DNA of 64,000 nt from assembly GCA_965214055.1 (NCBI GenBank), contig OZ243931.1:1583380-1647379 (forward strand). The letters are read 5' to 3'. Below, piece after piece: positions 17,431 through 33,337 of this stretch. Each line of letters opens with the position of its first letter. Positions within the stretch are counted from its first letter, which is position 1. This DNA comes from Candidatus Poriferihabitaceae bacterium. GTDB taxonomy: Bacteria > Pseudomonadota > Gammaproteobacteria > Arenicellales > Poriferihabitantaceae. The notes beneath the pieces were generated by a model. The model saw only the letters and a program-made list of their open reading frames with translations. It was not told where the DNA came from and did no database searches. Position numbers and translations under genes: made by a program.

Positions 17431-19025
17431 CGGGTCCGATAACCTGTGGCGAAGCCACCATGCGGCTTCTGGAAAAATATGGTGTCACGACGGTATTTGG
17501 CATCCCCGGCGTGCATACCCTGGATTTTTGCCGGGGCCTGGATCATGGTCGGGAGATTGTCCATGTCCAGACACGGAACGAGCAGGGTGCCGGGTTCATG
17601 GCGGAAGGCTGGGCCCGGGCCACGGGTCAACCCGGTGTGGCGCTGGTGATTTCCGGGCCCGGGGTCACCAATGCCAGTACGGCCCTGGGCCAGGCCTGGG
17701 CGGACAGCCTGCCCATGCTGCTGATTTCGGCCGAGGCGGCCAGCTATACCATTGGGAAGGGATGGGGGGTCCTGCATGAAATTACGGAACAGAAAAAGGT
17801 CACCGACCCCCTGACCGCATTCTCCGCTACGGCACGGTCTGCAGCGGATGTGCCGGGGTTGCTTGCCCAGGCGTTTTCCCTGTTTGCCAGCCAGCGACCC
17901 CGGCCGGTTCACATCTCCATCCCCATCGATGTTCAGGCACAGATGGTGAATGAGGCATGGCAGCCGGTGAAACTGCCCGCAGCGGCCGTGCCGGGAAACC
18001 GGCAGATCGAAGAGGCCAGAAGGTTGTTGATCCGTGCAAAACGGCCTCTGCTCATGCTGGGCGGGGGTGCCTGGCAGGCAGGTCCTGCACTGGTTTCCAT
18101 CGCCGAATCCCTGGGTGCCATGGTGATTGCCTCCACAGCGGGGAAGGGAATTGTACCGGACGATCACCCCCTGTCCCTGTCGGCTTCCACCGTTCGTCCA
18201 GAGGTGCTGGGTTTCCTCAAGGAGGCCGATGTGATCCTGGCGGTGGGCAGCGAGTTGTCGGAAACCGACAGTTTTGTAGAACGTATGGACCTGCAGGGAA
18301 AATTGATCCGGGTGGATATTGACGTATCCAAGATGAACGACTTCTATCCCGCTGATCTGGCCATCGTCGCCGATGCAAAAGTGACCATGGAGAGGCTGGC
18401 CACCGCGTTGAGTGACCATGTTCCGGTTGACCGGCCGGGTGCGGAAGACCGGGTAGCGGCCATTCGTACCCAAATCAGTGCCAATCTTTCCGCGTCTGAA
18501 ATCCAGCACACGGCCCTGCTTGGGCGGCTTGCAGACATTGCGCCACCGGATACCATCTGGTGCGGAGATGTCTGCCAGCTGGTGTATACCGGTGCCTTTG
18601 CCATGCCGATGAAAAGTCCGCGGAAATGGTTCTATCCTGCAGGGTACTGCGCACTGGGGAATGCCCTTCCGAATGCTATCGGCGCCAAGCTGGCACAGCC
18701 CGACAGCCCCGTGGTGGTGCTGGCTGGTGACGGCGGTTTCATGTTTACCATGCCGGAGCTGATGACTGCTGCAGAACGGGAGCTGGGCCTGCCCATCGTG
18801 ATCTGGGAGAATGGCGGCCTGAAACAGATTCAGGACGACATGGACAGCCGAAACATTCCCCGGGTAGGGGTTGAAGGAGTGAATCCGGATTTTGTGGCGC
18901 TGGCCCAGGCGTGTCACTGCCATGGCGTGAGACCCCGGAACCCGGAAGAATTCGAAACCGCATTTTTGGATGCATTGAACCGCGACCGGCCTACTGTCAT
19001 CGTGGTTGAGGAACAGCGAGACTGA
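17427..19025 (+). CDS. thiamine diphosphate-dependent enzyme (acetolactate synthase / 2-oxoacid decarboxylase-like)
   Basis: TVFGIPGVHTLDF...RNEQGAGFMAEGWARATGQPGV...GPGVTNA (Pyr domain), and GDGGFMFTMPELMTAAERELGLPIVIWENGG (ThDP-binding motif). Its ATG overlaps the GMC stop (ATGA). Confidence 0.9.
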   Translation: MTGPITCGEATMRLLEKYGVTTVFGIPGVHTLDFCRGLDHGREIVHVQTRNEQGAGFMAEGWARATGQPGVALVISGPGVTNASTALGQAWADSLPMLLISAEAASYTIGKGWGVLHEITEQKKVTDPLTAFSATARSAADVPGLLAQAFSLFASQRPRPVHISIPIDVQAQMVNEAWQPVKLPAAAVPGNRQIEEARRLLIRAKRPLLMLGGGAWQAGPALVSIAESLGAMVIASTAGKGIVPDDHPLSLSASTVRPEVLGFLKEADVILAVGSELSETDSFVERMDLQGKLIRVDIDVSKMNDFYPADLAIVADAKVTMERLATALSDHVPVDRPGAEDRVAAIRTQISANLSASEIQHTALLGRLADIAPPDTIWCGDVCQLVYTGAFAMPMKSPRKWFYPAGYCALGNALPNAIGAKLAQPDSPVVVLAGDGGFMFTMPELMTAAERELGLPIVIWENGGLKQIQDDMDSRNIPRVGVEGVNPDFVALAQACHCHGVRPRNPEEFETAFLDALNRDRPTVIVVEEQRD

Positions 19026-19028
19026 ACG

Positions 19029-20501
19029 ATGAGACAGTATCAATACTATGCAGGGGGACAGTGGCATGATCCCGCTTCCGGACGATGGATCGACAGTGAG
19101 AACCCCGCGTCGGGGGAAGTCTGGGCGAGAATTCCCGACTGCAATGTCGAGGATGTTGATCGGGCGGTGAAGGCCGCTCACGAGTGCTTTGACCAGGGGC
19201 CCTGGGGCAGGATGCATCCTGCACAACGGGGGCGGCTGATCCGCCGGATCGGGGATGCCATTGTAAAACACGCTGACCGCCTGGGTGAGGTGGAAACCCG
19301 GGACAACGGCAAGTTACCCAAAAATATCACGCCTTCTTTGACATCCTGGCAGACGGAAAGCTTTTATTATTATGCCGGAATGTGCGACAAATTCGAAGGG
19401 TCACTGCTGCCTTCGGAGGTTCCGGACATGCTGAACTACCTGCGTTGGGAGCCCTATGGGGTCTGCGGGCTGATCACTGCATGGAACTCCCCGCTTGGGG
19501 TGTTGATCTGGAAGCTGGCCCCCGCGCTGGCGGCAGGCAATGCCGTGGTGATCAAGCCGTCGGAACATGCGTCCGCCTCCACCATTGAACTGATGGAGGT
19601 TTTGCAGGAAGCGGACTTGCCGCCGGGGCTGGTGAATGTGGTGACCGGATACGGCAAGACCACAGGTGAACCCCTTGCAGATCACCCCTGTGTGCGCATG
19701 GTGAGTTTTACCGGCGGAATCCCCGGCGGCCGTGCCGTGGCCGAAGTGGCTGCGCGGAAAGTAAAACCGGTGGTCATGGAACTCGGGGGCAAATCTCCCC
19801 AGATTATCCTGGAAGATGCGGACCTTGATCTGGCGGTCAACGGGGTGGTATCCGGGATTTTTCCGGCAACGGGGCAAAGCTGTATATCGGGTTCCCGGTT
19901 ACTGGTACCACGGTCCCTGCTCGAAGAGTTCAGCAACCGACTGGTGGCGGTGGCATCCCGGGCACGGGTGGGGCATCCTGACGACCCCATGACCCAGGTG
20001 GGACCCATTGCCAATCGGCCACACTACGAAAAGGTGTTGCGCGATATCGAAAGTGCCGTGGAAGCCGGGGCCAGATTATTGCTGGACGGTCGCGGCAAGG
20101 GACCGGACAGGGGGTATTACATCGGCCCCACGGTTTTTTCAGGGGTGACCAATCAGGCCCGGCTGGCCCAGGAGGAAGTCTTCGGCCCGGTGGTAGCCAT
20201 CATTCCCTATGACGATGAGGAGGAGGTTGTCCAAATTGCCAACGACACGGTCTTTGGCCTGGCGGCGGGTATCTGGACCCGGGACACAAACCGCGCAATC
20301 CGCATGGCAGACCGTATCCAGGCCGGCACCGTGTACATCAACAATTACTTCAATGCCGCGACCCAGTCCCCCGTCGGTGGATTCAAGCAATCCGGCTATG
20401 GCCGGGAAAACGGTTTTGAAGGGATGCGCTGTTTCATGCAGACCAAATCGGTTTGGCTGGCAACCAATCCGGACCAGCCGGACCCGTTTCCGGATGAATG
20501 A
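19029..20501 (+). CDS. NAD(P)-dependent aldehyde dehydrogenase
   Basis: ITAWNSPLGVLIWKLAPALAAGNAVVIKPSE, VSFTGG, MELGGKSP and GQSCISGSRLLV, with the catalytic Glu and Cys in canonical context. Confidence 0.9.
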   Translation: MRQYQYYAGGQWHDPASGRWIDSENPASGEVWARIPDCNVEDVDRAVKAAHECFDQGPWGRMHPAQRGRLIRRIGDAIVKHADRLGEVETRDNGKLPKNITPSLTSWQTESFYYYAGMCDKFEGSLLPSEVPDMLNYLRWEPYGVCGLITAWNSPLGVLIWKLAPALAAGNAVVIKPSEHASASTIELMEVLQEADLPPGLVNVVTGYGKTTGEPLADHPCVRMVSFTGGIPGGRAVAEVAARKVKPVVMELGGKSPQIILEDADLDLAVNGVVSGIFPATGQSCISGSRLLVPRSLLEEFSNRLVAVASRARVGHPDDPMTQVGPIANRPHYEKVLRDIESAVEAGARLLLDGRGKGPDRGYYIGPTVFSGVTNQARLAQEEVFGPVVAIIPYDDEEEVVQIANDTVFGLAAGIWTRDTNRAIRMADRIQAGTVYINNYFNAATQSPVGGFKQSGYGRENGFEGMRCFMQTKSVWLATNPDQPDPFPDE

Positions 20502-20734
20502 ACCCCTCCGGCCTGATCCAGGGGGCCGGGTCCTCCGGTTATCGGGATGAAAAACGCACCACGGGATGATCCTGAAATACTGTCAATCCAATTTTAAAAT
20601 ATCACTGTTTTAATCTCACGGGAAACCTTAAAATCGATCATCCTTCAATTCCGGAAAAACTGGACAAAAAACCCGCCGGTTCAGGCCCGGTTCCGGGAAC
20701 CCGCTTACTTTCCGACTATTTTCTGTGACCTGCC

Positions 20735-21298
20735 ATGATTCAAAAACACTATATCTCCGCACAGGAACTGCTTGAAGACTCCTATTTGCTCGGTGCACAA
20801 ATCATCGAAAGCGAATTTCGCCCGGATTTCATTGTCGGAATATGGAGGGGAGGGGCCCCCGTTGGCATTGCAGTTCAGGAGATGCTGGAGCATTTCGGGA
20901 TTACCACGGACCATATCAGTGTGCGCACCTCGCTCTATCGGGGCATTGGTCAGCTGGAACCGGGTGTGCGGGTGCATGGACTGGATTACCTGGTGAAGAA
21001 TTTGAATGCCGAAAATGCGCTGTTGATCATTGATGACGTATTTGATTCCGGGCGCAGTATTGAGGCGGTCCTCAATCAACTGACGAGGAGGACCCGGCGG
21101 AATACGCCGGAGCAGATCAAGGTGGCAGCCCCCTGGTACAAGCCTGCCAACAACAAGACCGATCAAAAACCCGATTATTACCTGCACACCACGGACCGGT
21201 GGCTGGTATTTCCACACGAAGTGCAGGGGCTCAGTGACAAAGAAATACTGCAGGGAAAAGGAAACCTGTATAAAATCATCGAGAGCGTAAAGCGCTGA
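20735..21298 (+). CDS. phosphoribosyltransferase family protein
   Basis: 187 aa. FIVGIWRGGAPVG and the PRPP-binding loop ALLIIDDVFDSGRS. Confidence 0.8.
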   Translation: MIQKHYISAQELLEDSYLLGAQIIESEFRPDFIVGIWRGGAPVGIAVQEMLEHFGITTDHISVRTSLYRGIGQLEPGVRVHGLDYLVKNLNAENALLIIDDVFDSGRSIEAVLNQLTRRTRRNTPEQIKVAAPWYKPANNKTDQKPDYYLHTTDRWLVFPHEVQGLSDKEILQGKGNLYKIIESVKR

Positions 21299-21563: not shown

Positions 21564-22259
21564 ATGACAGACGACTACGATGACGATATAGACCTGTCTT
21601 CGTTGCCCGATGATGAGCTTGTCGAGCAGATGCATGACGATCTGTATGATGGATTGCGTGACGAAATTATTGAAGGTACCGAAATCCTGCTGGAGCGCGG
21701 ATGGGAGGCGACCAAGGTACTGGACGATGCGCTGGTGGAAGGAATGCGCATTGTGGGCATTGATTTTCGGGATGGAATTCTTTTTGTTCCGGAAGTGCTG
21801 ATGTCTGCCAATGCCATGAAAGGCGGCATGTCCATACTGCGGCCGCTTCTGGCGGAAACCGGTGCCGAGCCCATTGGCAAGGTGATCATCGGAACCGTAA
21901 AGGGGGATATTCACGATATCGGTAAAAACCTGGTCGCCATGATGCTGGAAGGAGCCGGATTTGAAGTCATCAATCTGGGAATCGACAATCCGGTGGAAAA
22001 CTACCTGAATGCGATCGAGGAACACCAGCCCGATATCGTCGGCATGTCCGCACTGTTGACCACCACCATGCCTTACATGAAAGTGGTCATCGATACCATG
22101 GTGGAGAAGGGAATCCGGGACGACCATATCGTTCTCGTTGGAGGAGCGCCGCTGAACGAGGAATTCGGAAAGGCCATCGGAGCGGATGCGTATTGCCGGG
22201 ATGCGGCGGTGGCCGTCGAAACCGCCCAGACATTGATCGCGGAAAGGCGCGCCGCCTAA
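21564..22259 (+). CDS. cobalamin-binding corrinoid protein (MtgC/MtbC-like methyl carrier)
   Basis: Four-helix cap region followed by a Rossmann B12 domain with the His-ligand motif GTVKGDIHDIGKNLV...GFEVINLG and SALLTTT. The N-terminal 30 residues are strongly acidic (MTDDYDDDIDLSSLPDDELVEQMHDDLYD). Confidence 0.9.
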   Translation: MTDDYDDDIDLSSLPDDELVEQMHDDLYDGLRDEIIEGTEILLERGWEATKVLDDALVEGMRIVGIDFRDGILFVPEVLMSANAMKGGMSILRPLLAETGAEPIGKVIIGTVKGDIHDIGKNLVAMMLEGAGFEVINLGIDNPVENYLNAIEEHQPDIVGMSALLTTTMPYMKVVIDTMVEKGIRDDHIVLVGGAPLNEEFGKAIGADAYCRDAAVAVETAQTLIAERRAA

Positions 22260-22281
22260 ATGTTGCCGGGACATTGCAGCG

Positions 22282-22941
22282 ATGCCTTCCGGCCCTAGCC
22301 CTGGCCCTGGTTCCAGTACCAACCGGGTCCTGGTGATCGCCTGCGGTGCCCTTGCTCACGACCTGGTGCGGGTCAGGGAGATCAATGGCTGGGATCATAT
22401 GGACATTCAGTGCCTGCCCGCAGAATGGCACAACCGGCCCCAGCTGATTCCCCAGGCGGTGCGGAAGAAAATCAATGAAAACCGGAGTCGCTACAGGCAC
22501 ATGTTTGTGGCGTATTCCGACTGCGGGACCGGTGGATTGCTTGACCGGGTTCTCGAGGAAGAAGGTGTGGAACGCCTCCCCGGAGCACATTGCTATGAAA
22601 TGTTTTCCGGAACCAGTCAGTTCAATGCACTCCATGAAGCGGAAATCGGGACATTCTACCTGACCGATTTTCTGGCCAATCATTTTGACCGGCTCATTGT
22701 AAAGGGGCTCGGTCTGGACCGATACCCGGAATTGAAGGAGCAGTATTTCGGAAACTATACGAAACTGGTTTACCTGGCACAAAAGGACGATGCAGCCCTG
22801 GACACAATGGCCAGGCAGGCATCCGAGTACCTGGATTTGGAGTACCAGCGGGTCAGAACCGGTGACGGACATTTGACATCGGCCCTGGCCGTACAAATCG
22901 GCGGTTCGGTGGAGAACCCTGAAGCAGTGTCCAGGCATTGA
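22282..22941 (+). CDS. DUF1638 domain protein
   Basis: VLVIACGALAHDL...FVAYSDCGTGG...AHCYEMF, the pattern I associate with DUF1638 proteins encoded next to corrinoid methyltransferase genes. Confidence 0.75.
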   Translation: MPSGPSPGPGSSTNRVLVIACGALAHDLVRVREINGWDHMDIQCLPAEWHNRPQLIPQAVRKKINENRSRYRHMFVAYSDCGTGGLLDRVLEEEGVERLPGAHCYEMFSGTSQFNALHEAEIGTFYLTDFLANHFDRLIVKGLGLDRYPELKEQYFGNYTKLVYLAQKDDAALDTMARQASEYLDLEYQRVRTGDGHLTSALAVQIGGSVENPEAVSRH

Positions 22942-23273
22942 GCAGGAGGAGACCGCGATTGGCAAAATTAATTACAGTTTACTGGCGGGATATTCCTGCA
23001 CAGGTGATCGCAAAGGAGCGCCGTCAATCCGAAAAGGTTCCGCTCAGCGACCGTTTTGCCGAGGCCATTGACAGTGCGGCAATGCGGGCCGGAAAAGGCG
23101 GGACCGATGCGTATCTGGAGGAATGGAAAAGAGTCGGCAGGAACTGTGGAGAGGATTTGAAAGCCGAAGCCGAAGCCGAAGCGGCAAGACTGGAGGCGGC
23201 CTATGATAAGGAGAGATTGCTTTCCCTGATCCGGAATCATGGTGTTGAGCCCCCAGGCGAAATTCAATCCTGA
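22938..23273 (+). CDS. small Virulence_fact-domain protein of unknown function
   Basis: ITVYWRDIPAQVIAKE...LSDRFAEAIDSAAMRAG matches the so-called virulence factor domain found beside methyl-THF:corrinoid methyltransferases. Start is TTG 22938 or TTG 22959, coupled to the DUF1638 stop. Confidence 0.65.
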   Translation: MSRRRPRLAKLITVYWRDIPAQVIAKERRQSEKVPLSDRFAEAIDSAAMRAGKGGTDAYLEEWKRVGRNCGEDLKAEAEAEAARLEAAYDKERLLSLIRNHGVEPPGEIQS

Positions 23274-23389
23274 CATTCCGTGGTGCGGCGACGCATCGTG
23301 GATTCAACGGAAGGAGGGTTGTTGACAGGATGTGCCATTTGCCCCGTGATACCCGGACAATATTACTATAAAGAAGATCGAGAAAAAGA

Positions 23390-24292
23390 ATGACAGACAC
23401 GGTGATCAGTTCAGCGACGAAGGAAGTGCGGATAGGGTTTGAGCATCCATTCGTAATTATTGGGGAACGCATTAACCCCACCGGCAGGAAGATTCTGGCG
23501 GAGGAAATGAAAAACGGGGACTACAGCAGGGTGGAAAGGGATGCTCTCGCCCAGGTTGAGGCCGGGGCCCGGATGCTGGATGTGAATGCCGGGATTCCGC
23601 TGGCCGATGAACCGGGAATCCTGGCGGAATCCATCAAACTGGTGCAGTCCATTACCGATGTACCCCTGTCCATTGATTCCTCCATCGTGGCCGCCCTGGA
23701 AGCGGGACTGGCGGTATACCAGGGCAAGCCACTGCTCAATTCGGTGACGGGGGAAGAGGAGAGGCTGGAAGCCGTATTGCCATTGGTGGCCAAGTACCAG
23801 TGTGCCGTGGTGGCGATCTCCAATGATGAAGCGGGAATATCCGAGAACCCGGATGAACGGTTTGACGTGGCAAAGAAAATCATTGAGCGGGCTTCGGACC
23901 ACGGAATTCACCACAGCGATATTGTCGTCGACCCCCTGGTGATGCCGGTGGGGGCGGTGAACAGTGCAGGGCGACAGGTCCTGCACCTGGTGAAACGGCT
24001 TCGTGAAGAACTGAAAGTGAACACCACCTGTGGAGCGTCGAATTTCAGTTTCGGCATTCCCAACAGAAAAGGCATGGATGGGCATTTCCTGAGCATGGCG
24101 ATCGGTGCCGGCATGACTTCAGCCATCACCAATCCCCTGCACGAAGAAGTCATGCAGGGGGTCATGAGTGCGGATGTGGTCATGGGACACGACGTCAATT
24201 GTGCACGATGGCTGAAAAAATACCGTCAGCCCGTGGAGGAGGCCGGCGGGGCCGGTGGAAGGCGTGCCGGTCGACGCCGCCGCAGGGGGTAG
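23390..24292 (+). CDS. methyltetrahydrofolate:corrinoid methyltransferase (pterin-binding TIM barrel, MtgA/AcsE-like)
   Basis: IIGERINPTGRK...MLDVNAG...PLSIDSS...LLNSVTGEE...VDPLVMPVG...TTCGASNFSFG, the pterin-binding family signature. The C-terminal tail is GGRRAGRRRRRG. Confidence 0.85.
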   Translation: MTDTVISSATKEVRIGFEHPFVIIGERINPTGRKILAEEMKNGDYSRVERDALAQVEAGARMLDVNAGIPLADEPGILAESIKLVQSITDVPLSIDSSIVAALEAGLAVYQGKPLLNSVTGEEERLEAVLPLVAKYQCAVVAISNDEAGISENPDERFDVAKKIIERASDHGIHHSDIVVDPLVMPVGAVNSAGRQVLHLVKRLREELKVNTTCGASNFSFGIPNRKGMDGHFLSMAIGAGMTSAITNPLHEEVMQGVMSADVVMGHDVNCARWLKKYRQPVEEAGGAGGRRAGRRRRRG

Positions 24293-24312
24293 GACGATGA
24301 TTCGGTTCTCCT

Positions 24313-24696
24313 GTGGTGGATGAACCCGGAACAAGGACGGGAGGCTGCCTGTGCGAGGGCGTCCGGTACCGGATTGTTGGGGAAATTCGCCCGGTAATCA
24401 ACTGCTTTTGCAGCCAGTGCCGGAAAACATCGGGACACCACTTTGCCGCAACCCGGGCAGGTCTGGACCAGTTTACGCTGTTGAGTGATGAAACCCTGGC
24501 CTGGTATTCGTCTTCTGATGAGGCAAAGCGGGGATTTTGTAATCGGTGCGGCAGCAGCCTGTTCTGGCAAAGGCGGGGGACCGATACCATCAGTATCACG
24601 GCCGGGACACTGGACGGGCCCACCGGACTGTCCACCATGAAAAATATTTTTGTGGAAGAGAGGGGGGATTATCATGATCTTCCGGTATTGAAATGA
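24313..24696 (+). CDS. GFA (glutathione-dependent formaldehyde-activating / CENP-V) family zinc protein
   Basis: GGCLCEGVRYRI...CFCSQCRKTSGHHF...FCNRCGSSLFW, the Cys-rich GFA pattern. GTG start. Confidence 0.8.
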   Translation: MVDEPGTRTGGCLCEGVRYRIVGEIRPVINCFCSQCRKTSGHHFAATRAGLDQFTLLSDETLAWYSSSDEAKRGFCNRCGSSLFWQRRGTDTISITAGTLDGPTGLSTMKNIFVEERGDYHDLPVLK

Positions 24697-26705
24697 ACGA
24701 AACCCCGGGAATGGTTCAAATCGTCTTTCTGCCCTCTGGCAAACGTGGGGAGATTGCGGCAGGGAAATCGGTTCTGGAAGCGGCCCAACAGCTGGGCGTG
24801 GACCTGGATACCGTCTGTGGCGGGCGTGGAATTTGCGACCGTTGCCAGATTGATCACAGCGTCGGTGAATTTGCCAAATTCAGAATCCATTCAAACCCCG
24901 ATCACCTTTCCCCCCACAGTGCCAGCGAAAAAGCGTTTTTTTCGGCGGATACTGCCCCCACCCGCCGGCTGGGCTGCCAGGCAAAACTGGCTGGTGATGT
25001 CGTCATTGATGTTCCGCCGGAAAGTCAGGCGCACAAACAGGTGGTCCGCAAACGCCTGGATGTGCACAACATTGCCGTCAATCCTTCTGTTCGCCTGCAC
25101 TATATTGAAGTGCCGGAACCCAACATGCATGACCCCACCGGTGACCTGCAGCGGGTACTGGATGCACTGGAATTTGACTGGGGGCTGACACAGGTCCGGT
25201 TTGATTTTCATTTGCTGGCATCACTCCAGGAGACCCTGCGTGCCGGCGACTGGAAAATAACGGTGGCGGTTCACCATGAAAATCAGGCCATGGCCATTTG
25301 GCCGGGATTGAAAAACCGGGTCTACGGGGTGGCGGTGGATGTGGGTTCCACCACCATTGCCGCGCATCTGTGCGACCTGGTGAGCGGCCAGGCCGTGGTC
25401 TCCACGGGGCGGATGAATCCCCAGATTCGGTTTGGTGAGGATTTGATGAGCCGGGTGTCCTACGTGATGATGAATCCGGGGGGGGAAGTTGAAATGACCC
25501 GCGCGGTTCGCCAGGCACTGCAGGGCCTGGTTGAGGACCTGGTCAAGGAGGCTGAGGTGGACCTCCAGGATGTGGTGGACATGACCCTCGTGGGGAACCC
25601 GGTGATGCATCATTTGTTGCTCGGCATCAACCCGGTGGAACTGGGGGGTGCCCCCTTTGCACTGGCCACGGACCAGGCCATCCAGACGGCCGCCAGGAAT
25701 CTTGATCTGCATATCAACCCGGGGGGCAGGGCGTATGTCCTGCCCTGTATCGCCGGGCATGTCGGAGCGGACGCAGCGGCGGCCACCCTGTCTGAAGCCC
25801 CCTATGAGCGCGATGAATTGACACTGCTGGTGGATGTCGGCACCAATGCGGAAATTGTTCTGGGCAACCGGAAACGGATGTTGGCCGCTTCCAGCCCAAC
25901 GGGTCCTGCATTTGAAGGCGCACAGATCAGTGGTGGCCAGCGGGCAGCACCGGGGGCCATTGAACGGGTCCGCATCGACCGGACGACCCTGGAACCCCGG
26001 TTCAGGATTATTGGCAGTGAACGGTGGTCCGACGACCCCGGCTTTGTGGAGTCCACCGCTGAAACCGGGGTCACCGGGATTTGTGGCTCAGGAATCATTG
26101 AAGTTATTGCTGAAATGTATCTCGTGGGACTGGTCAAAGCCGATGGGGTTATTGACGGTTCGCTGTCGGACCGGACCCCGCGGCTGGCCCTGGACGGAAA
26201 AACCTGGAGTTATACCCTGTATGACGAAGGACCGGTTCAGGTCATCATTACACAGAATGATGTTCGCGCAATCCAGCTGGCGAAAGCGGCATTGTATGCG
26301 GGCGCGCGCCTGTTGATGGACAAGCTCAAAGTGGATACCGTTGACCGCATCCGGCTCGCCGGCGCATTCGGTGCACACATTGATGTCAAATATGCCATGG
26401 TGCTGGGCATGATCCCGGATTGCCGGCTTGAACATGTCACGTCTGCGGGGAATGCGGCCGGGACCGGGGCAACGATCACCTTGCTGGATCGGGATGCCAG
26501 GTCCGAAATCGAGGATGTTGTCCGGCGCATCCAGAAAGTCGAAACCGCAGTTGAAGCCAAATTCCAGGACCATTTCGTGGAGGCGCTGGCCATTCCACAC
26601 AAAACGGCTCGTTTTGAAAACCTGTGTCAGGAAGTGGACCTTCCCGTCCCGGACAATCCGGGGCCGGCGACCAGTGCCCGGCCGAGGCGCAGACGACGCC
26701 GGTAA
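24693..26705 (+). CDS. corrinoid reductive activase (N-terminal 2Fe-2S ferredoxin plus ASKHA ATPase domain, RamA/RACo-like, DUF4445)
   Basis: The N-terminus VQIVFLPSGK...CGGRGICDRCQ is plant-type ferredoxin-like. Then GVAVDVGSTTIAAHL, LVDVGTNAEIVLG and PTGPAFEGAQISGG actin-fold ATPase motifs. The C-terminal tail is SARPRRRRRR. ATGA overlap with the GFA gene. Confidence 0.85.
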   Translation: MNETPGMVQIVFLPSGKRGEIAAGKSVLEAAQQLGVDLDTVCGGRGICDRCQIDHSVGEFAKFRIHSNPDHLSPHSASEKAFFSADTAPTRRLGCQAKLAGDVVIDVPPESQAHKQVVRKRLDVHNIAVNPSVRLHYIEVPEPNMHDPTGDLQRVLDALEFDWGLTQVRFDFHLLASLQETLRAGDWKITVAVHHENQAMAIWPGLKNRVYGVAVDVGSTTIAAHLCDLVSGQAVVSTGRMNPQIRFGEDLMSRVSYVMMNPGGEVEMTRAVRQALQGLVEDLVKEAEVDLQDVVDMTLVGNPVMHHLLLGINPVELGGAPFALATDQAIQTAARNLDLHINPGGRAYVLPCIAGHVGADAAAATLSEAPYERDELTLLVDVGTNAEIVLGNRKRMLAASSPTGPAFEGAQISGGQRAAPGAIERVRIDRTTLEPRFRIIGSERWSDDPGFVESTAETGVTGICGSGIIEVIAEMYLVGLVKADGVIDGSLSDRTPRLALDGKTWSYTLYDEGPVQVIITQNDVRAIQLAKAALYAGARLLMDKLKVDTVDRIRLAGAFGAHIDVKYAMVLGMIPDCRLEHVTSAGNAAGTGATITLLDRDARSEIEDVVRRIQKVETAVEAKFQDHFVEALAIPHKTARFENLCQEVDLPVPDNPGPATSARPRRRRRR

Positions 26706-26830
26706 CCGGTGGCGAACACAATGCGTTGCCATGCCATGGTTTGATTTCCGGTTGGAGATGGCCGGTCCACCGCCCGGAGAATTCAGGGTCCCGGGTCCGT
26801 TCAACGTCCTGTTTTGCCGGTAGCCACAGG

Positions 26831-27313
26831 GTGACCGGGAAGATTCAGCGGGCAGGTGCCGGGGATGTTGACGCCATCGGCGCCTGTGTGAACGACGCCT
26901 ATCGCCACTATATCCAGCGCATGGGAAAGGTCCCCGGTCCCATGCTGGACGATTACGCCGGCCGCGTGAAAAACGATCACACCTATGTCATCAAGTCCCG
27001 GGACCGGGTCATCGGGCTGTTGGTTCTGATTGAGGATGAAAAGGGAATGCTGCTGGACAACATTGCCGTGCACCCCGATGTCCAGGGGCAGGGAATCGGA
27101 AAAAGACTGATGGATTTTGCAGAAGACCTGGTCGTGCGGTCAGGGTATACGAGGATCACGTTGTATACCCATGTAACCATGACCGAGAGTTTTGCACTGT
27201 ACAAACATCTCGGTTATGCCGTGAGCGAAAGAAAAACCGTGGATGGATACCGGCGGATTTACATGGAAAAGACCCTGGAGAAGCCGCAGACGGACCCGGC
27301 CCCGCTGCCTTGA
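26831..27313 (+). CDS. GNAT family N-acetyltransferase
   Basis: From GTG 26831: ...VIGLLVLIEDEKGMLLDNIAVHPDVQGQGIGKRLM...LYTHVTMTESFALYKHLGY, acetyl-CoA binding motif A. The track ORF from 26624 overlaps the activase and is probably over-extended. Confidence 0.7.
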   Translation: MTGKIQRAGAGDVDAIGACVNDAYRHYIQRMGKVPGPMLDDYAGRVKNDHTYVIKSRDRVIGLLVLIEDEKGMLLDNIAVHPDVQGQGIGKRLMDFAEDLVVRSGYTRITLYTHVTMTESFALYKHLGYAVSERKTVDGYRRIYMEKTLEKPQTDPAPLP

Positions 27314-27456
27314 GTCGTTTGGGGAAGAAAACGATGCCCCGGGGCGGGGCAACGTGGCGCCGCCATCATACTCCGTCATTGCCGTGTTGCAGGGCCTCCT
27401 GGTGCGCACCGCTGCCTGGGAACCAGGTCTGGCCGGTAACGGGGTTCCTTCCGAGT

Positions 27457-28995
27457 CTAGATGTTGGAATCGGCAAATGAATGCTTGCGTTGTTCCATGT
27501 ATGCAAGCAGGGCTTCGTCAATGGCGGGGTCCAGCGCCGGGGGGACATATTCCCGGAGCATTTTTTTCCAGAGCGTGTTGGCCCGGGAAATGGCATCCTG
27601 GGACCCTTCCAGCTCCCATTGTTCAAAGCTGTTGTTATCCGCGATATTGGATCGGTAAAACGCGGTCTTGAAATTGTTCTGGGTGTGGCCACAGCCGAGA
27701 AAGTGGGCCCCGGGCCCGACTTCCCGGATGGCACTCAGTGCCTGCCCGTTTTCAGTCAGGTCGGTCCCTTCGGCGAAGACCGCCATCATGCCCAGCTGGT
27801 CGGCATCCATCACCAGTTTTTCGTAGCCCGAAGCCAGCCCCCCTTCCAGCCAACCGGCTGCGTGAAGAACAAAATTCACCCCTGCGGTCATCGTGGGCTG
27901 AATGGTATTGGCGCTTTCGTAGGCCGCCTGGGCGTCCGGAATCTTTGAGGCACACAGTGCGCCGCCACTTCGGAACGGCACCCCCAGTCGACGGGCCAGC
28001 GCCGCACAGCCGTTCAGCACCAGGGCGGGTTCCGGGGTGCCGAAGGTGGGGGCCCCGGACTGCATGGAAATGGAGCTGGAAAAGGTGCCGAAAACCACCG
28101 GAGAACCGGGCCGTACAAGTTGGGTGAAGGCCATGCCCGCCATGGCTTCGGCAAGTATTTGTGCCATGGTCCCGGCCACGGTCACCGGGGACATCGCTCC
28201 GGCCAGTATGAAAGGGGAGATGATGCTGGCCTGGTTGTTTCGGGCATAGACTTCCGACGCTCCCAGCATGGTTTCGTCGAAGGTCATGGGTGAGTTCGCA
28301 TTGATCAGGTTAATGACCACCGTGTGACTGTCCACGAATTCGCTGCCAAACAGGATCTTGCACATATTGACGGTGTCTTCGGCCCGTTCCGGCTGGGTCA
28401 CTGAACCCATGAACGGCTTGTCGCTGAATTTCATATGGCTGTACACCATATCGAAGTGCCGCTTGTTTACCGGAAGATCCGTGGGTTCGCAGACGGTACC
28501 GCCGGAATGGTGCAGGGAGGGCAGCATGTAAGTCAATTTCACGAGATTCCTGAAATCCTCGATCATGGCATAACGCCGGCCCTTGTCCAGGTCACGAATG
28601 AATGGCGGACCATAAACCGGTGCAAAGACGGTGTGCCTGCCCCCGATTTTTACGTTTCGATGGGGGTTTCTGGCGTGTTGCTCAAAGACTGCCGGGGCGG
28701 AATCCTGGATAATTTTCCGGCACATGCCTTCGGGGAAGCGAACCCGTTCCCCATCGATATCTGCCCCGGCTTCCCTGAAGAGCCTGAGGGCGGGTTCATA
28801 CCGGAAATCAATGCCGATCTCCTTTAGGATGGTCTCGGCATTGCTCTCGATCAGCGATAGCCCTTCTTCGCTGAGTAAAACGTATTCAGGGATTTTTCGC
28901 GTAATATAGGGGCGGATCGTCGGGACCGCCCTGCTTTCGGTTTGCTGTCGTCCTCGACGGCCGCCTCGTTTTCGTCCTCTTGCTCTGTCTGTCAT
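27457..28995 (-). CDS. MttB-superfamily (trimethylamine methyltransferase family) protein, non-pyrrolysine type; likely quaternary amine:corrinoid methyltransferase
   Basis: 512 aa and uninterrupted, with no in-frame TAG. ...LLSEEGLSLIESNAETILKEIGIDF...FREAGADIDGERVRF...RNVKIGG..TVFAPVYGPPF...NANSPMTFDE...ILAGAMSPVT is the family pattern. The N-terminus is Arg-rich (MTDRARGRKRGGRRGRQQ). Confidence 0.9.
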   Translation of the reverse strand: MTDRARGRKRGGRRGRQQTESRAVPTIRPYITRKIPEYVLLSEEGLSLIESNAETILKEIGIDFRYEPALRLFREAGADIDGERVRFPEGMCRKIIQDSAPAVFEQHARNPHRNVKIGGRHTVFAPVYGPPFIRDLDKGRRYAMIEDFRNLVKLTYMLPSLHHSGGTVCEPTDLPVNKRHFDMVYSHMKFSDKPFMGSVTQPERAEDTVNMCKILFGSEFVDSHTVVINLINANSPMTFDETMLGASEVYARNNQASIISPFILAGAMSPVTVAGTMAQILAEAMAGMAFTQLVRPGSPVVFGTFSSSISMQSGAPTFGTPEPALVLNGCAALARRLGVPFRSGGALCASKIPDAQAAYESANTIQPTMTAGVNFVLHAAGWLEGGLASGYEKLVMDADQLGMMAVFAEGTDLTENGQALSAIREVGPGAHFLGCGHTQNNFKTAFYRSNIADNNSFEQWELEGSQDAISRANTLWKKMLREYVPPALDPAIDEALLAYMEQRKHSFADSNI

Positions 28996-29398: not shown

Positions 29399-30493
29399 AT
29401 GGCCAAAGATATCTATGCGGTAAACGGAATTTCCATCACCAAAATTTATGGGGCAGGTGCTTCGGGTGTGACCGCACTGAATGACGTATCCGTCTCCATC
29501 AAGGACAACGAATTCTTTACATTACTGGGCCCATCGGGGTGTGGAAAAACCACGTTGCTGCGTTGTATCGCCGGTTTTGAGCAGTTGTCTTCCGGTCGAA
29601 TCCTGTTGTTTGGCGAAGAAATTGACCACTTGCCGCCGAATCAGCGGCCGGTCAATACCGTTTTCCAGCACTATGCTTTATTCCCGCATATGACCGTCGC
29701 CGAAAATATCGGCTTCAGTCTGCGGATGCTGAAGCAGGGAGATGCCAAAATCAGGGCGACGGTGGAACGAATGCTTGATCTGGTACACATGACCGCGTTT
29801 GCCAGCCGTCATCCGGCGCAATTGTCCGGAGGTCAACAGCAGCGGGTTGCCCTGGCACGGGCATTGGCGAGTCACCCGAAAGTTTTGCTCCTGGATGAAC
29901 CGCTGTCCGCGCTGGACCTGAAATTGCGACAGGAAATGCGGGTGGAATTGAAACAGGTACAGGAAGAAACCGGGATCACGTTCATCTTTGTTACCCATGA
30001 CCAGGAGGAGGCCCTGACCATGAGTGACCGGATTGCGGTCATGTCCGATGGAAAAATCCAGCAGACCGGCAAGCCCACCGAGATCTATGAAAACCCGATC
30101 AATCACTTTGTTGCGGATTTCATCGGTGAAACCAATTTTCTTGCCGCCACGGTGCAATCCGTCGACGCTGACCACGCCCGGTGCGTACTCGCCAATGGGG
30201 CGCAACTGTCCGCAAACCTGGCGGTCCCCAGGGAACGGGGCAGCAAGGTAACGATTTGTATCCGTCCCGAGAAAATTTCTCTGGACAGCCCCGGTACAGC
30301 GGCCGGCGGGATCGACGGAACCGTAGACCGGTTGATCTATTTGGGGACCGATACGCATTATCTTGTACAACTCGGCAACCAGACCTCTGTGCTGGCAAGA
30401 ATACAGAACAGTCACCAATCCCCCCGGTTCAGGCCTGGAGACCCGGCAAGGGTGGTGCTGGATGAATCCGCATGCCGGGTATTGGCGGATTGA
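29399..30493 (+). CDS. ABC transporter ATP-binding protein, PotA/spermidine-putrescine type
   Basis: From ATG 29399: LLGPSGCGKTTLL (Walker A), LSGGQQQRVALARAL (signature), LLLDEPLSALD (Walker B), and a C-terminal TOBE-like domain. Confidence 0.9.
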   Translation: MAKDIYAVNGISITKIYGAGASGVTALNDVSVSIKDNEFFTLLGPSGCGKTTLLRCIAGFEQLSSGRILLFGEEIDHLPPNQRPVNTVFQHYALFPHMTVAENIGFSLRMLKQGDAKIRATVERMLDLVHMTAFASRHPAQLSGGQQQRVALARALASHPKVLLLDEPLSALDLKLRQEMRVELKQVQEETGITFIFVTHDQEEALTMSDRIAVMSDGKIQQTGKPTEIYENPINHFVADFIGETNFLAATVQSVDADHARCVLANGAQLSANLAVPRERGSKVTICIRPEKISLDSPGTAAGGIDGTVDRLIYLGTDTHYLVQLGNQTSVLARIQNSHQSPRFRPGDPARVVLDESACRVLAD

Positions 30494-30494
30494 C

Positions 30495-31433
30495 ATGAAT
30501 GTAACGGAAACGACACCCCGGCGAACCCGGCCTGGAAGGAGTCGTGCAAGACAGATTTCAATAGCCCGGGCCTGGTTGCTTTTCCCCGCGTTGCTGCTTG
30601 TTTTTTGTTTTTTGATCCTCCCGCTTTGCATTATTGTTGTCTATTCCTTTCTGACCCCTGGAACGTATGGCGGGGTGATTTGGGATTTTTCCCTTGAATC
30701 CTATATCCAGTTTTTGTTTGAACGGGACTTCCTGGATGACACCCTGGCGTTTTCTCCCGCCTATCTGCAAATTTATTTCCGTTCTTTTGTTCAGGCGCTG
30801 GTCACCACCATCGTTTGTTTCCTGATTGGGTTTCCCACCGCCTATTACATCGCGACCCTGCCCGAACGCAAAAAGTACATGTGGGTGTTGTTGATTACGG
30901 TTCCGTACTGGATCAATTTGCTGATCAGGACCATTGCGATGCTGTTCCTGATTCGCAATGAAGGACCGCTGAATTATGCGTTGATATCCATCGGGGCAAT
31001 CGATGATCCAATCAAGATTGCCTATACCAATTTCGGTGTGGGGCTCGGCCTGGTCTACACCTATCTGCCGTTTATGGTCCTGCCGCTTTATGCGGCCATT
31101 GAACGATTTGATTTTCGCCTGGTGGAAGCCTCCTATGATCTGTATGCGAATCGATGGACGATTCTGCGGAAAATAATCTTGCCGTTGGTGGTGCCCGGCA
31201 TTGTTGCAGGCTGCCTGTTGGTGTTTATTCCAAGCCTGGGTTCATTTATTGCCCCGGATTTGCTGGGAGGGGGTAAAAAGCTGATGATCGGAAATTTGAT
31301 CGCTTTACAGTTTCAGGGGTCCCGGAACTGGCCCTTTGGTTCGGCTGCGGCGGTGATACTGATGACCATGGTTCTGTGTGCATTGATGGTCTATATCCGC
31401 CAGCAGAGCAAGTCCCGGATTGCGTTGCACTGA
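30495..31433 (+). CDS. ABC transporter permease (PotB-like)
   Basis: From ATG 30495, one nt after the potA-like stop. Six-TM pattern with the EAA loop (AIERFDFRLVEASYDLYANRW). Confidence 0.85.
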   Translation: MNVTETTPRRTRPGRSRARQISIARAWLLFPALLLVFCFLILPLCIIVVYSFLTPGTYGGVIWDFSLESYIQFLFERDFLDDTLAFSPAYLQIYFRSFVQALVTTIVCFLIGFPTAYYIATLPERKKYMWVLLITVPYWINLLIRTIAMLFLIRNEGPLNYALISIGAIDDPIKIAYTNFGVGLGLVYTYLPFMVLPLYAAIERFDFRLVEASYDLYANRWTILRKIILPLVVPGIVAGCLLVFIPSLGSFIAPDLLGGGKKLMIGNLIALQFQGSRNWPFGSAAAVILMTMVLCALMVYIRQQSKSRIALH

Positions 31434-31441
31434 TTGGACCC

Positions 31442-32242
31442 ATGGGTAAAACACACGATCTGAAACGTTATCCCGGTTTTGCGGGAATGACCTGGGCCTG
31501 CCTTGTTTTTTTATATGGCCCGCTCATTGTCATTGCGCTGTATTCGTTCAATGAAATCCGGTCGATCACCGTGTGGGGAGGATTCAGTTTTTCCTGGTAC
31601 GCGAAAGCCTTTAACAACGACCTCATTCAACGGGCCACCTACAATTCCCTGATTATCGCAGTATCCGCCGCCACGGCGTCCACCATCTTTGCCACCGCTG
31701 CCGCACTGGCCATCATACGAAACCGGGCTTTTCGCGGCAGGGAGGCCAGCATCGGGATTATCAGCTTGCCACTGATGGTGCCTGAAATCGTGACCGCCAT
31801 TGCATCGCTGGTATTCTTCGTGCTGGTCGGGATTCCGTTGGGAATCGGCAGTATCTTGCTGGCCCATACCGTATTTTGTATTCCGTTTGCCTATTTGCCC
31901 ATTACCGCCCGGCTGGAAGGCATAGAAAGTCACTACGAGGAAGCTGCCAAAGACCTGTACGCCGACAGCTGGCAAACCTTTCGGTATGTCATGTTGCCCA
32001 TGATGTTTCCGGGTATCGTGGCCGGATTTATTCTGGCATTTATCATTTCCCTGGACGATTTTATTATTACCAATTTCGTCGCCGGACCCGGGGCTACGAC
32101 CCTGCCCCTGGCAATCTATGGACTGGTTCGAACCGGGCTGACACCGGAAATCAACGCGGTATCCACGTTGCTTTTACTGGTGTCCATATTTTTTGTGACG
32201 CTTTCTTACCTGCTGGGGAAAAAGCCCGGTTCCAGTGTATAA
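31442..32242 (+). CDS. ABC transporter permease (PotC-like)
   Basis: From ATG 31442: MGKTHDLKRYPGFA.... EAA loop LEGIESHYEEAAKDLYADSW. Confidence 0.85.
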   Translation: MGKTHDLKRYPGFAGMTWACLVFLYGPLIVIALYSFNEIRSITVWGGFSFSWYAKAFNNDLIQRATYNSLIIAVSAATASTIFATAAALAIIRNRAFRGREASIGIISLPLMVPEIVTAIASLVFFVLVGIPLGIGSILLAHTVFCIPFAYLPITARLEGIESHYEEAAKDLYADSWQTFRYVMLPMMFPGIVAGFILAFIISLDDFIITNFVAGPGATTLPLAIYGLVRTGLTPEINAVSTLLLLVSIFFVTLSYLLGKKPGSSV

Positions 32243-32302
32243 TCGCCCGTTGTGAACCCGCTGGCGGTTATCAATTTTCAATACATCCTATAGGAGAAGA
32301 AC

Positions 32303-33337
32303 ATGAAAAAGATTTCCATTGTTTTTGTATCTTTCTTGAGCCTGGTTTTTCTATCCGGTCCCGTACTGGCCGAGGGGAAGCTGAATATTTATAACTGGTT
32401 CGATTACCTTCCCCAGGAATTGATCGACAAATTTTCCGCAGAGTATGATGTCGAAGTCACGATGGACACCTATGATTCCAATGAATCGCTGCTGGCCAAG
32501 TTGAAATCCGGCGTCACCGGTTACGATGTAGCCGTCCCCGGGGATTACATGGTGCAGATATTGATTGAAGAAGGCATGCTGGAACAGGTCAACGCTTCCG
32601 AATTTGAAAACTTCGGGAACATGGACCCGGACTGGGTGGACGTGTATTTCGACCCGGGCAGACAGTATTCGGTGCCCTATCAGTGGGGAACCACCGGTTT
32701 TATGGTGGATACCGAAGTCTATGACGGGGATATTGATACCCTGGAGATCATTTTCAACCCACCGGCAGAACTGCAGGGCAAGATCAACATGCTTAAAGAT
32801 GTCAATGACGTTCTGAACGCCGGATTGCGTTATCTTGGACTGGACCGTTGCAATGAGAACCCGGAAGACCTGAAAAAACTGAACGATTTGCTGACCAATG
32901 CCAAACAACACTGGTTGAGTTTCAATTCGGATGGCGCCAAGGAAGTCCTGGTTTCCGGGGATGCCGCGGCAGGGCAAATCTGGAATGGATTCGGCATGCG
33001 GGCACGGGCTGAAAAAGCGAGCCTGAAATATGCGTACCCGAAAGAAGGATTTACCGGTTGGATGGACAATATTGTCGCACTCAAGGGGGGCCCCAATCTG
33101 GAGAATGCAAAGAAATTCATGAATTTCATGCTTGTGCCTGAAAACGCGGCCACACTCACCAATTTCGCACGCTACACGGCAGGGGTTTCCGGCACCGAGC
33201 CGTTCCTGGATGATGACCTGAAGACTGCACACGAAACCAATCTGCCGGCATCCGCGCCGACCCCTGATTTTGTACCTCCTTGCAGTCCCGAGGTGGTCAA
33301 GCTGTACGACCGGATCTGGACGAATTTGCTGAAGTAA
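32303..33337 (+). CDS. periplasmic substrate-binding protein, PotD/PotF family
   Basis: Signal peptide MKKISIVFVSFLSLVFLSGPVLA, then KLNIYNWFDYLPQELIDKF...YDVAVPGDYMV...VPYQWGTTGF, typical of polyamine-type SBPs. Confidence 0.85.
   Translation: MKKISIVFVSFLSLVFLSGPVLAEGKLNIYNWFDYLPQELIDKFSAEYDVEVTMDTYDSNESLLAKLKSGVTGYDVAVPGDYMVQILIEEGMLEQVNASEFENFGNMDPDWVDVYFDPGRQYSVPYQWGTTGFMVDTEVYDGDIDTLEIIFNPPAELQGKINMLKDVNDVLNAGLRYLGLDRCNENPEDLKKLNDLLTNAKQHWLSFNSDGAKEVLVSGDAAAGQIWNGFGMRARAEKASLKYAYPKEGFTGWMDNIVALKGGPNLENAKKFMNFMLVPENAATLTNFARYTAGVSGTEPFLDDDLKTAHETNLPASAPTPDFVPPCSPEVVKLYDRIWTNLLK

Follow-up and report, generated by a model that had tools for sequence, protein, structure and literature searches.

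Complementary charged termini on a corrinoid carrier and its enzymes in a split methionine synthase system: a putative docking or addressing element

The window analysed here is a stretch of 64,000 nucleotides from contig OZ243931.1 (positions 1,583,380 to 1,647,379) of the gammaproteobacterium Candidatus Poriferihabitaceae bacterium. Between positions 21564 and 28995 it encodes a gene cluster for corrinoid-dependent methyl transfer, in which the carrier MtgC, a stand-alone corrinoid (B12) protein, starts with an acidic N-terminal extension, and the enzymes that act on this carrier have basic, Arg/Gly-rich tails. Comparison of homologous systems makes it fairly probable that the acidic MtgC and its tailed clients recognize each other through these oppositely charged segments, which would form a charge-complementary docking or addressing element. 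By sequence, the cluster is an ordinary member of the known MtgBCDE system, the glycine-betaine methyltransferase and split methionine synthase described in Ruegeria pomeroyi (Mausz et al. 2025, PMC12478193) and in Phaeobacter inhibens (Price et al. 2018, PMC5764234). What is new is the proposed tail code of complementary charge, the existence of clusters with the same architecture but without tails, the coexistence of both kinds in one genome, and an MttB subfamily with the tail at its C-terminus.

Charged termini of the carrier and its clients

MtgC (21564..22259, plus strand) consists of the Pfam domains B12-binding_2 (PF02607) and B12-binding (PF02310), has the DxHxxG motif within the sequence GDIHDIGKN, and matches corrinoid proteins in PDB as well as the B12 module of MetH. 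It begins MTDDYDDDIDLSSLPDDELVEQMHDDLYD; the acidic extension (21564..21650, plus strand) is 29 residues long, with 13 Asp or Glu and no Lys or Arg. MtgD, the pterin-binding methyltetrahydrofolate:corrinoid methyltransferase (23390..24292, plus strand; Pterin_bind, PF00809), aligns at residues 18-280 with the MeTr structure 2YCI, and its C-terminus reads GGRRAGRRRRRG, where the Arg/Gly-rich tail PVEEAGGAGGRRAGRRRRRG (24230..24289, plus strand) lies beyond the MeTr fold. The RACo/RamA-like ATP-dependent reductive activase of the corrinoid protein (24693..26705, plus strand) has the RACo linker, middle and C-terminal domains of Pfam and aligns with PDB 3ZYY at residues 9-637; its C-terminal extension (26604..26702, plus strand) lies beyond the ASKHA fold and ends with SARPRRRRRR. 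The fourth protein, an MtgB-like, non-pyrrolysine substrate:corrinoid methyltransferase of the MttB family (27457..28995, minus strand), matches Pfam MTTB (PF06253) over its full length with 761.8 bits and no in-frame stop, and matches PDB entry 4YYC at 765 bits and the D. hafniense MtgB at 427 bits. It begins MTDRARGRKRGGRRGRQQ, and its basic N-terminal extension (28918..28995, minus strand) spans about 26 residues, has a net charge of +7 and is predicted to be disordered. These four termini had been quoted in a preliminary description of the window, and all of them are present in the sequence exactly as quoted there. A tail was then predicted, and subsequently found, on MtgE, the PF02574 homocysteine S-methyltransferase, which is encoded at genome positions 1651161-1652222, 3.8 kb 3' of the window end, and has the C-terminus RSRGERRSRRRPRR, with RRSRRRPRR at the end.

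The tails are translated. Those at the C-termini are fixed by stop codons, and the MttB start is supported by an in-frame TGA three codons upstream of the ATG and by the lack of any alternative start for more than 60 codons downstream. We count the MtgC extension as translated because AGGA is found 8-11 nucleotides upstream of its ATG and because the extension is retained at the protein level in 80/80 related loci. Since starts and stops hold, the objection raised beforehand, that wrongly annotated ends could have made the tails untranslated, fails. Two candidates were rejected along the way. The small PF13769 gene was called from a TTG at 22938 (open reading frame (ORF) 22938-23273), which would give it the basic start MSRRRPR; in this case SRRRPR is the ribosome-binding site AGGAGG read in frame. 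The called start is probably over-extended: another TTG, at 22959, has AGGAGG 7 nucleotides upstream, and it is at the position matching this TTG that all homologues begin, with MAKLI/MASLI. A twin-arginine translocation signal peptide at the N-terminus of MttB was rejected as well, because QQTESRAVPTIRPYITRK, which comes after the basic run, contains no hydrophobic stretch, and because the same kind of tail also occurs at C-termini.

The charges are strongly asymmetric. MtgC has a net charge of -29 and an isoelectric point of 4.2, with -13 contributed by the first 29 residues. The tails of the clients carry +4 to +8, and their bodies are acidic (net -10 to -21); therefore, the basic tail is the only attractive element that a client offers to MtgC. 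The preliminary description held that none of the tails belongs to the catalytic folds, and all of them do lie beyond the folds of the solved homologs: D. hafniense MtgB begins at about residue 33 of the MttB encoded in the window, the Moorella corrinoid protein begins at MtgC residue 17-21 or so (residues 17-28, approximately, for PDB corrinoid proteins overall), Carboxydothermus MeTr ends at MtgD residue 280, with MtgD 20 residues longer, and the 3ZYY alignment ends at RACo residue 637, with the protein in the window 33 residues longer. In single-chain AlphaFold2 models made with alignments, MttB residues 1-23 score below 50 in the predicted local distance difference test (pLDDT) and MtgC residues 1-10 about 51, so that both segments score as disordered. 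The description does not hold for the rest of the MtgC extension: for residues 11-28 an acidic helix on the cap is predicted with confidence (pLDDT 96), for which reason the acidic "tail" appears to be half tail, half ordered helix of the cap.

With such charges, a tail might also act within its own enzyme, neutralizing the acidic body or folding back on it, with consequences for solubility, oligomerization or auto-inhibition and with no contact with the carrier. The opposite signs of client cores and tails are compatible with this idea, and in archaeal MttB the N-terminal strands are known to stabilize the oligomer (PMC9842639). We nevertheless consider it quite unlikely: homologs of all four families function without tails, as seen from PDB entries and from the untailed clusters described below; the tail may stand at either end of MttB; AlphaFold2 gives no confident packing of the tails; and the tight link to the acidic extension of the carrier would be left unexplained.

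The genome (one contig, 3.14 Mb) has a single MtgC, a single MtgD, a single RACo and 11 MttB paralogues, 25-55% identical to each other. The ten MttB genes outside the cluster are found at genome positions 13715, 194215, 1992107, 2021048, 2055160, 2316266, 2432672, 2578840, 1684283 and 3096730, so that all 11 paralogues of a 3.1-Mb genome share one corrinoid carrier. MtgD and MtgE are encoded as separate proteins, as in split methionine synthase, and a tblastn search of the genome with MtgC found no fused MetH. The preliminary description had the carrier docking on exactly three partners; this number is too small, as the partners are at least 14 (the 11 MttB paralogues, MtgD, RACo and MtgE). 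The URO-D family was considered as a source of further clients and dismissed, since the only URO-D homologue in the genome is HemE.

Tails of this kind are rare in the genome, and their distribution is more than chance. At least six Arg among the last 15 residues are found in 11 of about 2,617 crude ORF-genes, and the five genes with most C-terminal Arg include MtgE (9), RACo (7) and MtgD (7); the chance that these three named genes would all fall within the Arg-tailed set is approximately 5e-8. The other Arg-tailed genes encode RNase R, an RluB-like protein and a RecO-like protein, or are doubtful ORFs. At the N-terminus, at least seven Lys or Arg in a 15-residue window are seen in 46 genes, among them 8/11 MttB paralogues, and basic, K/R-rich N-termini are present on all 11. 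Two other PF02574 paralogues, near 1300301 and 1290677, which are not corrinoid-dependent, have no tail.

Arg/Gly-rich disordered tails are classic nucleic-acid binders, and the tails might bind a polyanion other than MtgC, such as RNA or DNA, polyphosphate or anionic membrane lipids, thereby localizing or co-concentrating the enzymes, with the acidity of MtgC unrelated or only indirectly related. This appears unlikely, because it leaves unexplained why tails occur only where the cognate carrier has an acidic extension, why untailed homologous systems exist in the same cytoplasm (see below), and why, of the three PF02574 paralogues, only the corrinoid-dependent one is tailed.

Acidic carriers and basic tails in homologous clusters

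We compared 80 loci of the MtgC clade from Alpha-, Beta- and Gammaproteobacteria, Acidimicrobiia, Actinomycetes, Thermoleophilia and Chloroflexota. MtgC of the window is 73-88% identical to the proteins of these loci, which include Mesorhizobium, Rhodobacteraceae and Ruegeria (about 75% at one Ruegeria locus). The acidic extension is present in 80/80 loci and conforms to the pattern M-x-[DE]n-[IL]-x-L-x-x-L-x-D-[DE]-E-L-x-x-Q-M-H-D-D-L-Y-D. In a library of representatives at 50% identity, all corrinoid proteins at least 58% identical to MtgC have the extension and those at or below 55% begin at the cap helix, so that the clade, which is one of aerobic bacteria, is separated by an identity gap from other corrinoid proteins, including those of anaerobes (<=55%).

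A basic C-tail was scored when any 13-residue window within the last 30 residues reached a net charge of at least 4; a stricter rule (5 K/R in 8 residues) was dropped as it under-called tails of the RGRREGGHRRR type. Beside an acidic MtgC, basic C-tails are present on MtgD in 42/43 cases, on RACo in 40/40 and on MtgE in 32/32. Among the 135 sampled MttB proteins, 86 have a basic N-extension and four more carry the basic tail at the C-terminus; tailed proteins make up 90/91 of the MttB assigned to acidic MtgC. Throughout the 80 loci the sequences of tails and linkers drift while the charge composition stays the same. Among the gene families of these neighbourhoods, Arg-rich C-tails occur only on MtgE, MtgD and RACo, and no conserved tail was found in the related loci on DUF1638 (72 homologues), PF13769 or GFA proteins.

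The other arm of the comparison came from samples of 201 Chloroflexota and 301 Actinomycetota genomes, in which the MttB-positive ones were searched for the carrier. Both phyla have clusters of the same architecture (corrinoid protein - MtgD-like - RACo - DUF1638 - (PF13769) - MttB), whose corrinoid proteins are 40-50% identical, have a net charge of -6/-7 and lack the acidic extension, starting with MSREEEIRQELF.., MTHEEILQLLYD.. or MNDDMEILK... The MttB proteins of these clusters begin at the core (MWKNT.., MFVNSMPRYE.., MFEREGALK..), in one case with a stop codon directly upstream; their MtgD ends ..RAAKKRAVATA or ..QAAAES, and their RACo ends ..FPDLEDVA. With the same C-tail score for MtgD and RACo, tails beside non-acidic corrinoid genes number 1/21 for MtgD, 0/36 for RACo and 0/44 for MttB. 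The co-occurrence that was to be expected from the preliminary description is thus borne out across homologous clusters: MtgD 42/43 vs 1/21, RACo 40/40 vs 0/36, MttB 90/91 vs 0/44. DUF1638 and PF13769 are present in both kinds of cluster and therefore are not the determinant of the tails; the acidic carrier is.

A tailed and an untailed system are both found in seven actinobacterial genomes and in one chloroflexal genome, and therefore the tails are not a property of the cytoplasm or of the lifestyle. Apparently, the two B12 methyl-transfer systems are insulated from each other within one cell. No rival explanation accounts for this within-genome contrast or for the link to the acidic extension of the carrier. 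At loci L269-L273 and L275-L277 (Actinomycetota) and L169 (Chloroflexota, genome G084), the untailed system is a second complete operon, corrinoid-MtgD-RACo-DUF1638-MttB, beside the tailed MtgC hub. As a separate observation, the non-acidic corrinoid proteins of one chloroflexal group (group B; L163 and L166-L168) have a conserved C-terminal extension ..AVELIDKTLKKG, absent from the MtgC clade, which may be an alternative docking element.

Origin and possible function of the tails

Not all tailed MttB have the tail at the same end. A distant MttB subfamily, 25-30% identical and starting with MRPxLxVL, is found in genomes with acidic MtgC; it has no N-extension and instead ends with a C-terminal linker ..GGGRRRNLRRERPAD, and the C-terminus ..RRRNxRRGG is seen in 118/120 of its close homologues. 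Loci of this subfamily include L174:1536-3092, L170 and L175 (genomes G129, G084 and G001) and L004 near 516. A second, separate C-tailed case is a gammaproteobacterial MttB ending ..RTRQHASRRRRTARSVAL. In a tree of 135 MttB sequences (IQ-TREE, quick mode, tail columns excluded), the best topology implies 5 changes of tail state, with 4 independent contrasts concordant with the acidity of the carrier and 0 discordant. A single clade for all N-basic MttB is rejected (delta log-likelihood 194, approximately unbiased (AU) test p 2e-5). Counted conservatively, these comparisons give three or more changes in MttB, while the unrelated MtgD, RACo and MtgE folds gained a tail once each.

These results bear on the possibility that the tails are a neutral by-product, generated by a GC-rich composition, by read-through or by errors of annotation, and inherited together with an operon that was transferred horizontally. 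Much of the co-occurrence can be put down to the shared descent of one system, the identity of 73-88% within the MtgC clade across phyla points to transfer, and GC-rich upstream regions do yield spurious Arg-rich reading frames. An automatic N-tail rule (at least 7 K/R in 16 residues, majority per 60%-identity cluster) in fact failed for two reasons: tails of the main clade, in which Gly and Ala are interspersed, escaped it, and Arg-rich untranslated leaders in GC-rich genomes were flagged. However, genomes of 35-48% GC retain the basic tails with more Lys in place of Arg, and because these genomes keep the charge by using Lys, GC bias is not the cause. Nor would a by-product be expected to conserve its composition while sequence and linker drift, to occur in four unrelated folds and on paralogues that are dispersed at a distance from the operon, or to appear at both termini with one origin of the N-tails rejected; and the starts and stops check out. 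A neutral origin is very improbable and largely refuted.

Several points weigh against docking or addressing by the tails. A single origin is probable for the acidic MtgC clade, one clade underlies each of the contrasts for MtgD, RACo and MtgE, and the joint inheritance of a system that was transferred could account for much of the co-occurrence. In the MttB tree, the sign test on the 4 informative contrasts gives p 0.125, which is not significant; the AU test does not reject a union of the two N-basic clades that lie in one half of the tree (p 0.40), and rejection of a single origin of the C-tails is borderline (AU p 0.068). In untailed clades, the N-terminal tail state was assigned by eye, with the conserved starts of orthologues as a guide. 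The correlation between the counts of acidic and basic residues is modest (r 0.43, with kinship ignored). DUF1638 and PF13769, which are required or conserved partners of the system, have no tails, and the comparable Arg-rich C-tails of the genome sit on proteins of RNA-binding types, RNase R and an RluB-like pseudouridine synthase, so that the ligand may be some other polyanion.

In the MtgBCDE system, to which the cluster belongs, MtgC is the one small carrier; it is methylated by the MttB-family enzymes and demethylated or remethylated by the folate enzyme MtgD, with the methyl group passed on to homocysteine via MtgE and the cofactor re-reduced by the RACo/RamA-like activase. If the acidic carrier and the basic tails do recognize each other, long-range electrostatics of low specificity would let the tails catch MtgC by its acidic cap or N-extension. 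This would raise the encounter rate and the local concentration of modules that, unlike those of MetH, have lost their covalent linkage, and would offset the mutual repulsion of the acidic bodies. A weak and fast-exchanging contact of this kind would let many clients (11 MttB, MtgD, MtgE and RACo) take turns. With the acidic segment located on the cap, a bound tail may in addition assist in pulling the cap off the cofactor. And since untailed corrinoid systems reside in the same cells, the tail might serve as an address, marking the clients of the hub carrier and separating them from those systems. Both the physical contact of the tails with MtgC and their effect on kinetics are inferred.

The preliminary description viewed the tails as electrostatic tethers that keep the carrier shuttling within one complex. 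Comparison supports this in part; a merely transient steering would agree with the observations just as well, and so would an address code by which corrinoid systems that run in parallel are kept apart. More tentatively, and with some doubt, we suggest a broader scheme, in which an Arg/Gly-rich tail at either terminus would be a portable address code that enrolls clients of MtgC and insulates the hub from untailed systems. At least six enzyme lineages (MtgD, RACo, MtgE and at least three lineages of MttB) would have gained the code by convergence, so that the full list of MtgC clients, such as the 11 MttB paralogues here, might be read from the genome, and the split enzyme would perhaps be a fuzzy, salt-sensitive multi-enzyme assembly in which tail binding aids uncapping.

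A docking code, if true, would provide a mechanism for cycling one oxygen-sensitive carrier among many separate partners, and would account for the way in which corrinoid systems that work side by side in the same cell escape cross-talk. In addition, the clients of the carrier, including the many orphan MttB paralogues, could be listed by a simple sequence signature, and the engineering of methyl-transfer modules would gain a handle.

Related systems and neighbouring genes

In abundant bacteria of the sea and of soil, MtgBCDE is reported to be a major route both for the demethylation of glycine betaine and for the synthesis of methionine (PMC12478193). The components of the Ruegeria and Phaeobacter systems (PMC12478193, PMC5764234) correspond to those discussed here: MtgC, the MttB-family MtgB, the pterin-binding MtgD, the PF02574 protein MtgE, the RACo/RamA-like activase and DUF1638. 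The differences are that the acidic extension and the basic tails are not mentioned in those papers, and that the present host is gammaproteobacterial and has 11 MttB paralogues; among named relatives, its closest proteins point to Arenicellales / Ca. Spongiihabitans. The earlier remark that such tails are undescribed for MttB-type systems agrees with our literature search: they are mentioned neither in the two founding papers (PMC12478193 and PMC5764234) nor in a 2025 MtgBCD preprint, a 2026 MtgB structure paper or the MttB-MttC structure paper. A search of the full-text literature for MttB with "arginine-rich" gave nothing relevant, with most subscription journals outside its coverage, so that this absence is not proof.

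Untailed systems, such as MtgB/MtgC/MtgA of D. hafniense and the MeTr, RACo and corrinoid proteins of Moorella and Carboxydothermus, have homologous folds and the same chemistry, and the chloroflexal and actinobacterial untailed clusters also share the gene architecture of the cluster in the window. They differ in that the carrier, with a net charge of -6/-7, has no acidic N-extension and the partners have no basic tails; in addition, they usually are operon-encoded sets with one to three adjacent MttB genes, and not a hub with many clients.

A structural precedent for an N-terminal addition that gives a corrinoid protein docking and specificity is found in the MtaC-MtaB methanol methyltransferase (PDB 2I2X), where an extra N-terminal element of MtaC docks the corrinoid protein on MtaB (PMC9842639). 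In MtaC, however, this is a folded domain that fits into the groove of one stable partner, whereas MtgC has a short acidic segment, and the disordered tails are on many exchanging partners. In MetH, the same modules (homocysteine, folate, and cap with B12) visit the cofactor in turn, and they are covalently linked; in the system of the window each of them is a protein of its own, and the charged tails may stand in for the tether. Acidic hub proteins are represented by bacterial SSB with its C-terminal tail and by acyl carrier protein, which is recognized by basic patches on its enzymes. The likeness lies in one small acidic hub with many partners and recognition that is largely electrostatic and exchanges fast, as is proposed for the tails. 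SSB and acyl carrier protein are unrelated to MtgC and differ in chemistry, and the basic element of the window system is a disordered terminal tail on each client and not a surface patch.

Among the remaining genes, those of the DUF1638, PF13769 and GFA proteins encode no charged tails. DUF1638 (22282..22941, plus strand; PF07796), which is needed together with the activase in Phaeobacter (PMC5764234), and the small PF13769 protein ("virulence factor" domain; 22959..23273 from the revised TTG start, plus strand) follow MtgC. A GFA-family gene, similar to glutathione-dependent formaldehyde-activating enzymes (24313..24696, plus strand; PF04828), lies between mtgD and the activase gene and overlaps the start of the latter by 4 nucleotides; GFA matches are found in only 6/80 related loci, so that it is not a conserved member of the cluster, and the genome has five further GFA paralogues. 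The activase gene is followed immediately by a GNAT acetyltransferase gene (26894-27313); the longest ORF of the latter, from 26624, overlaps the tail of the activase and is probably an over-call. Divergent from the MttB gene is an ABC importer (window 29411-33337) with an ATPase that has a TOBE domain, two permeases and a binding protein of the SBP_bac_8 type, which resembles the PotABCD type more than a classical betaine transporter. Upstream of the cluster (17427-21298) are genes for a thiamine diphosphate-dependent enzyme (17427-19025), an aldehyde dehydrogenase (19029-20501) and a phosphoribosyltransferase-domain protein (20735-21298).

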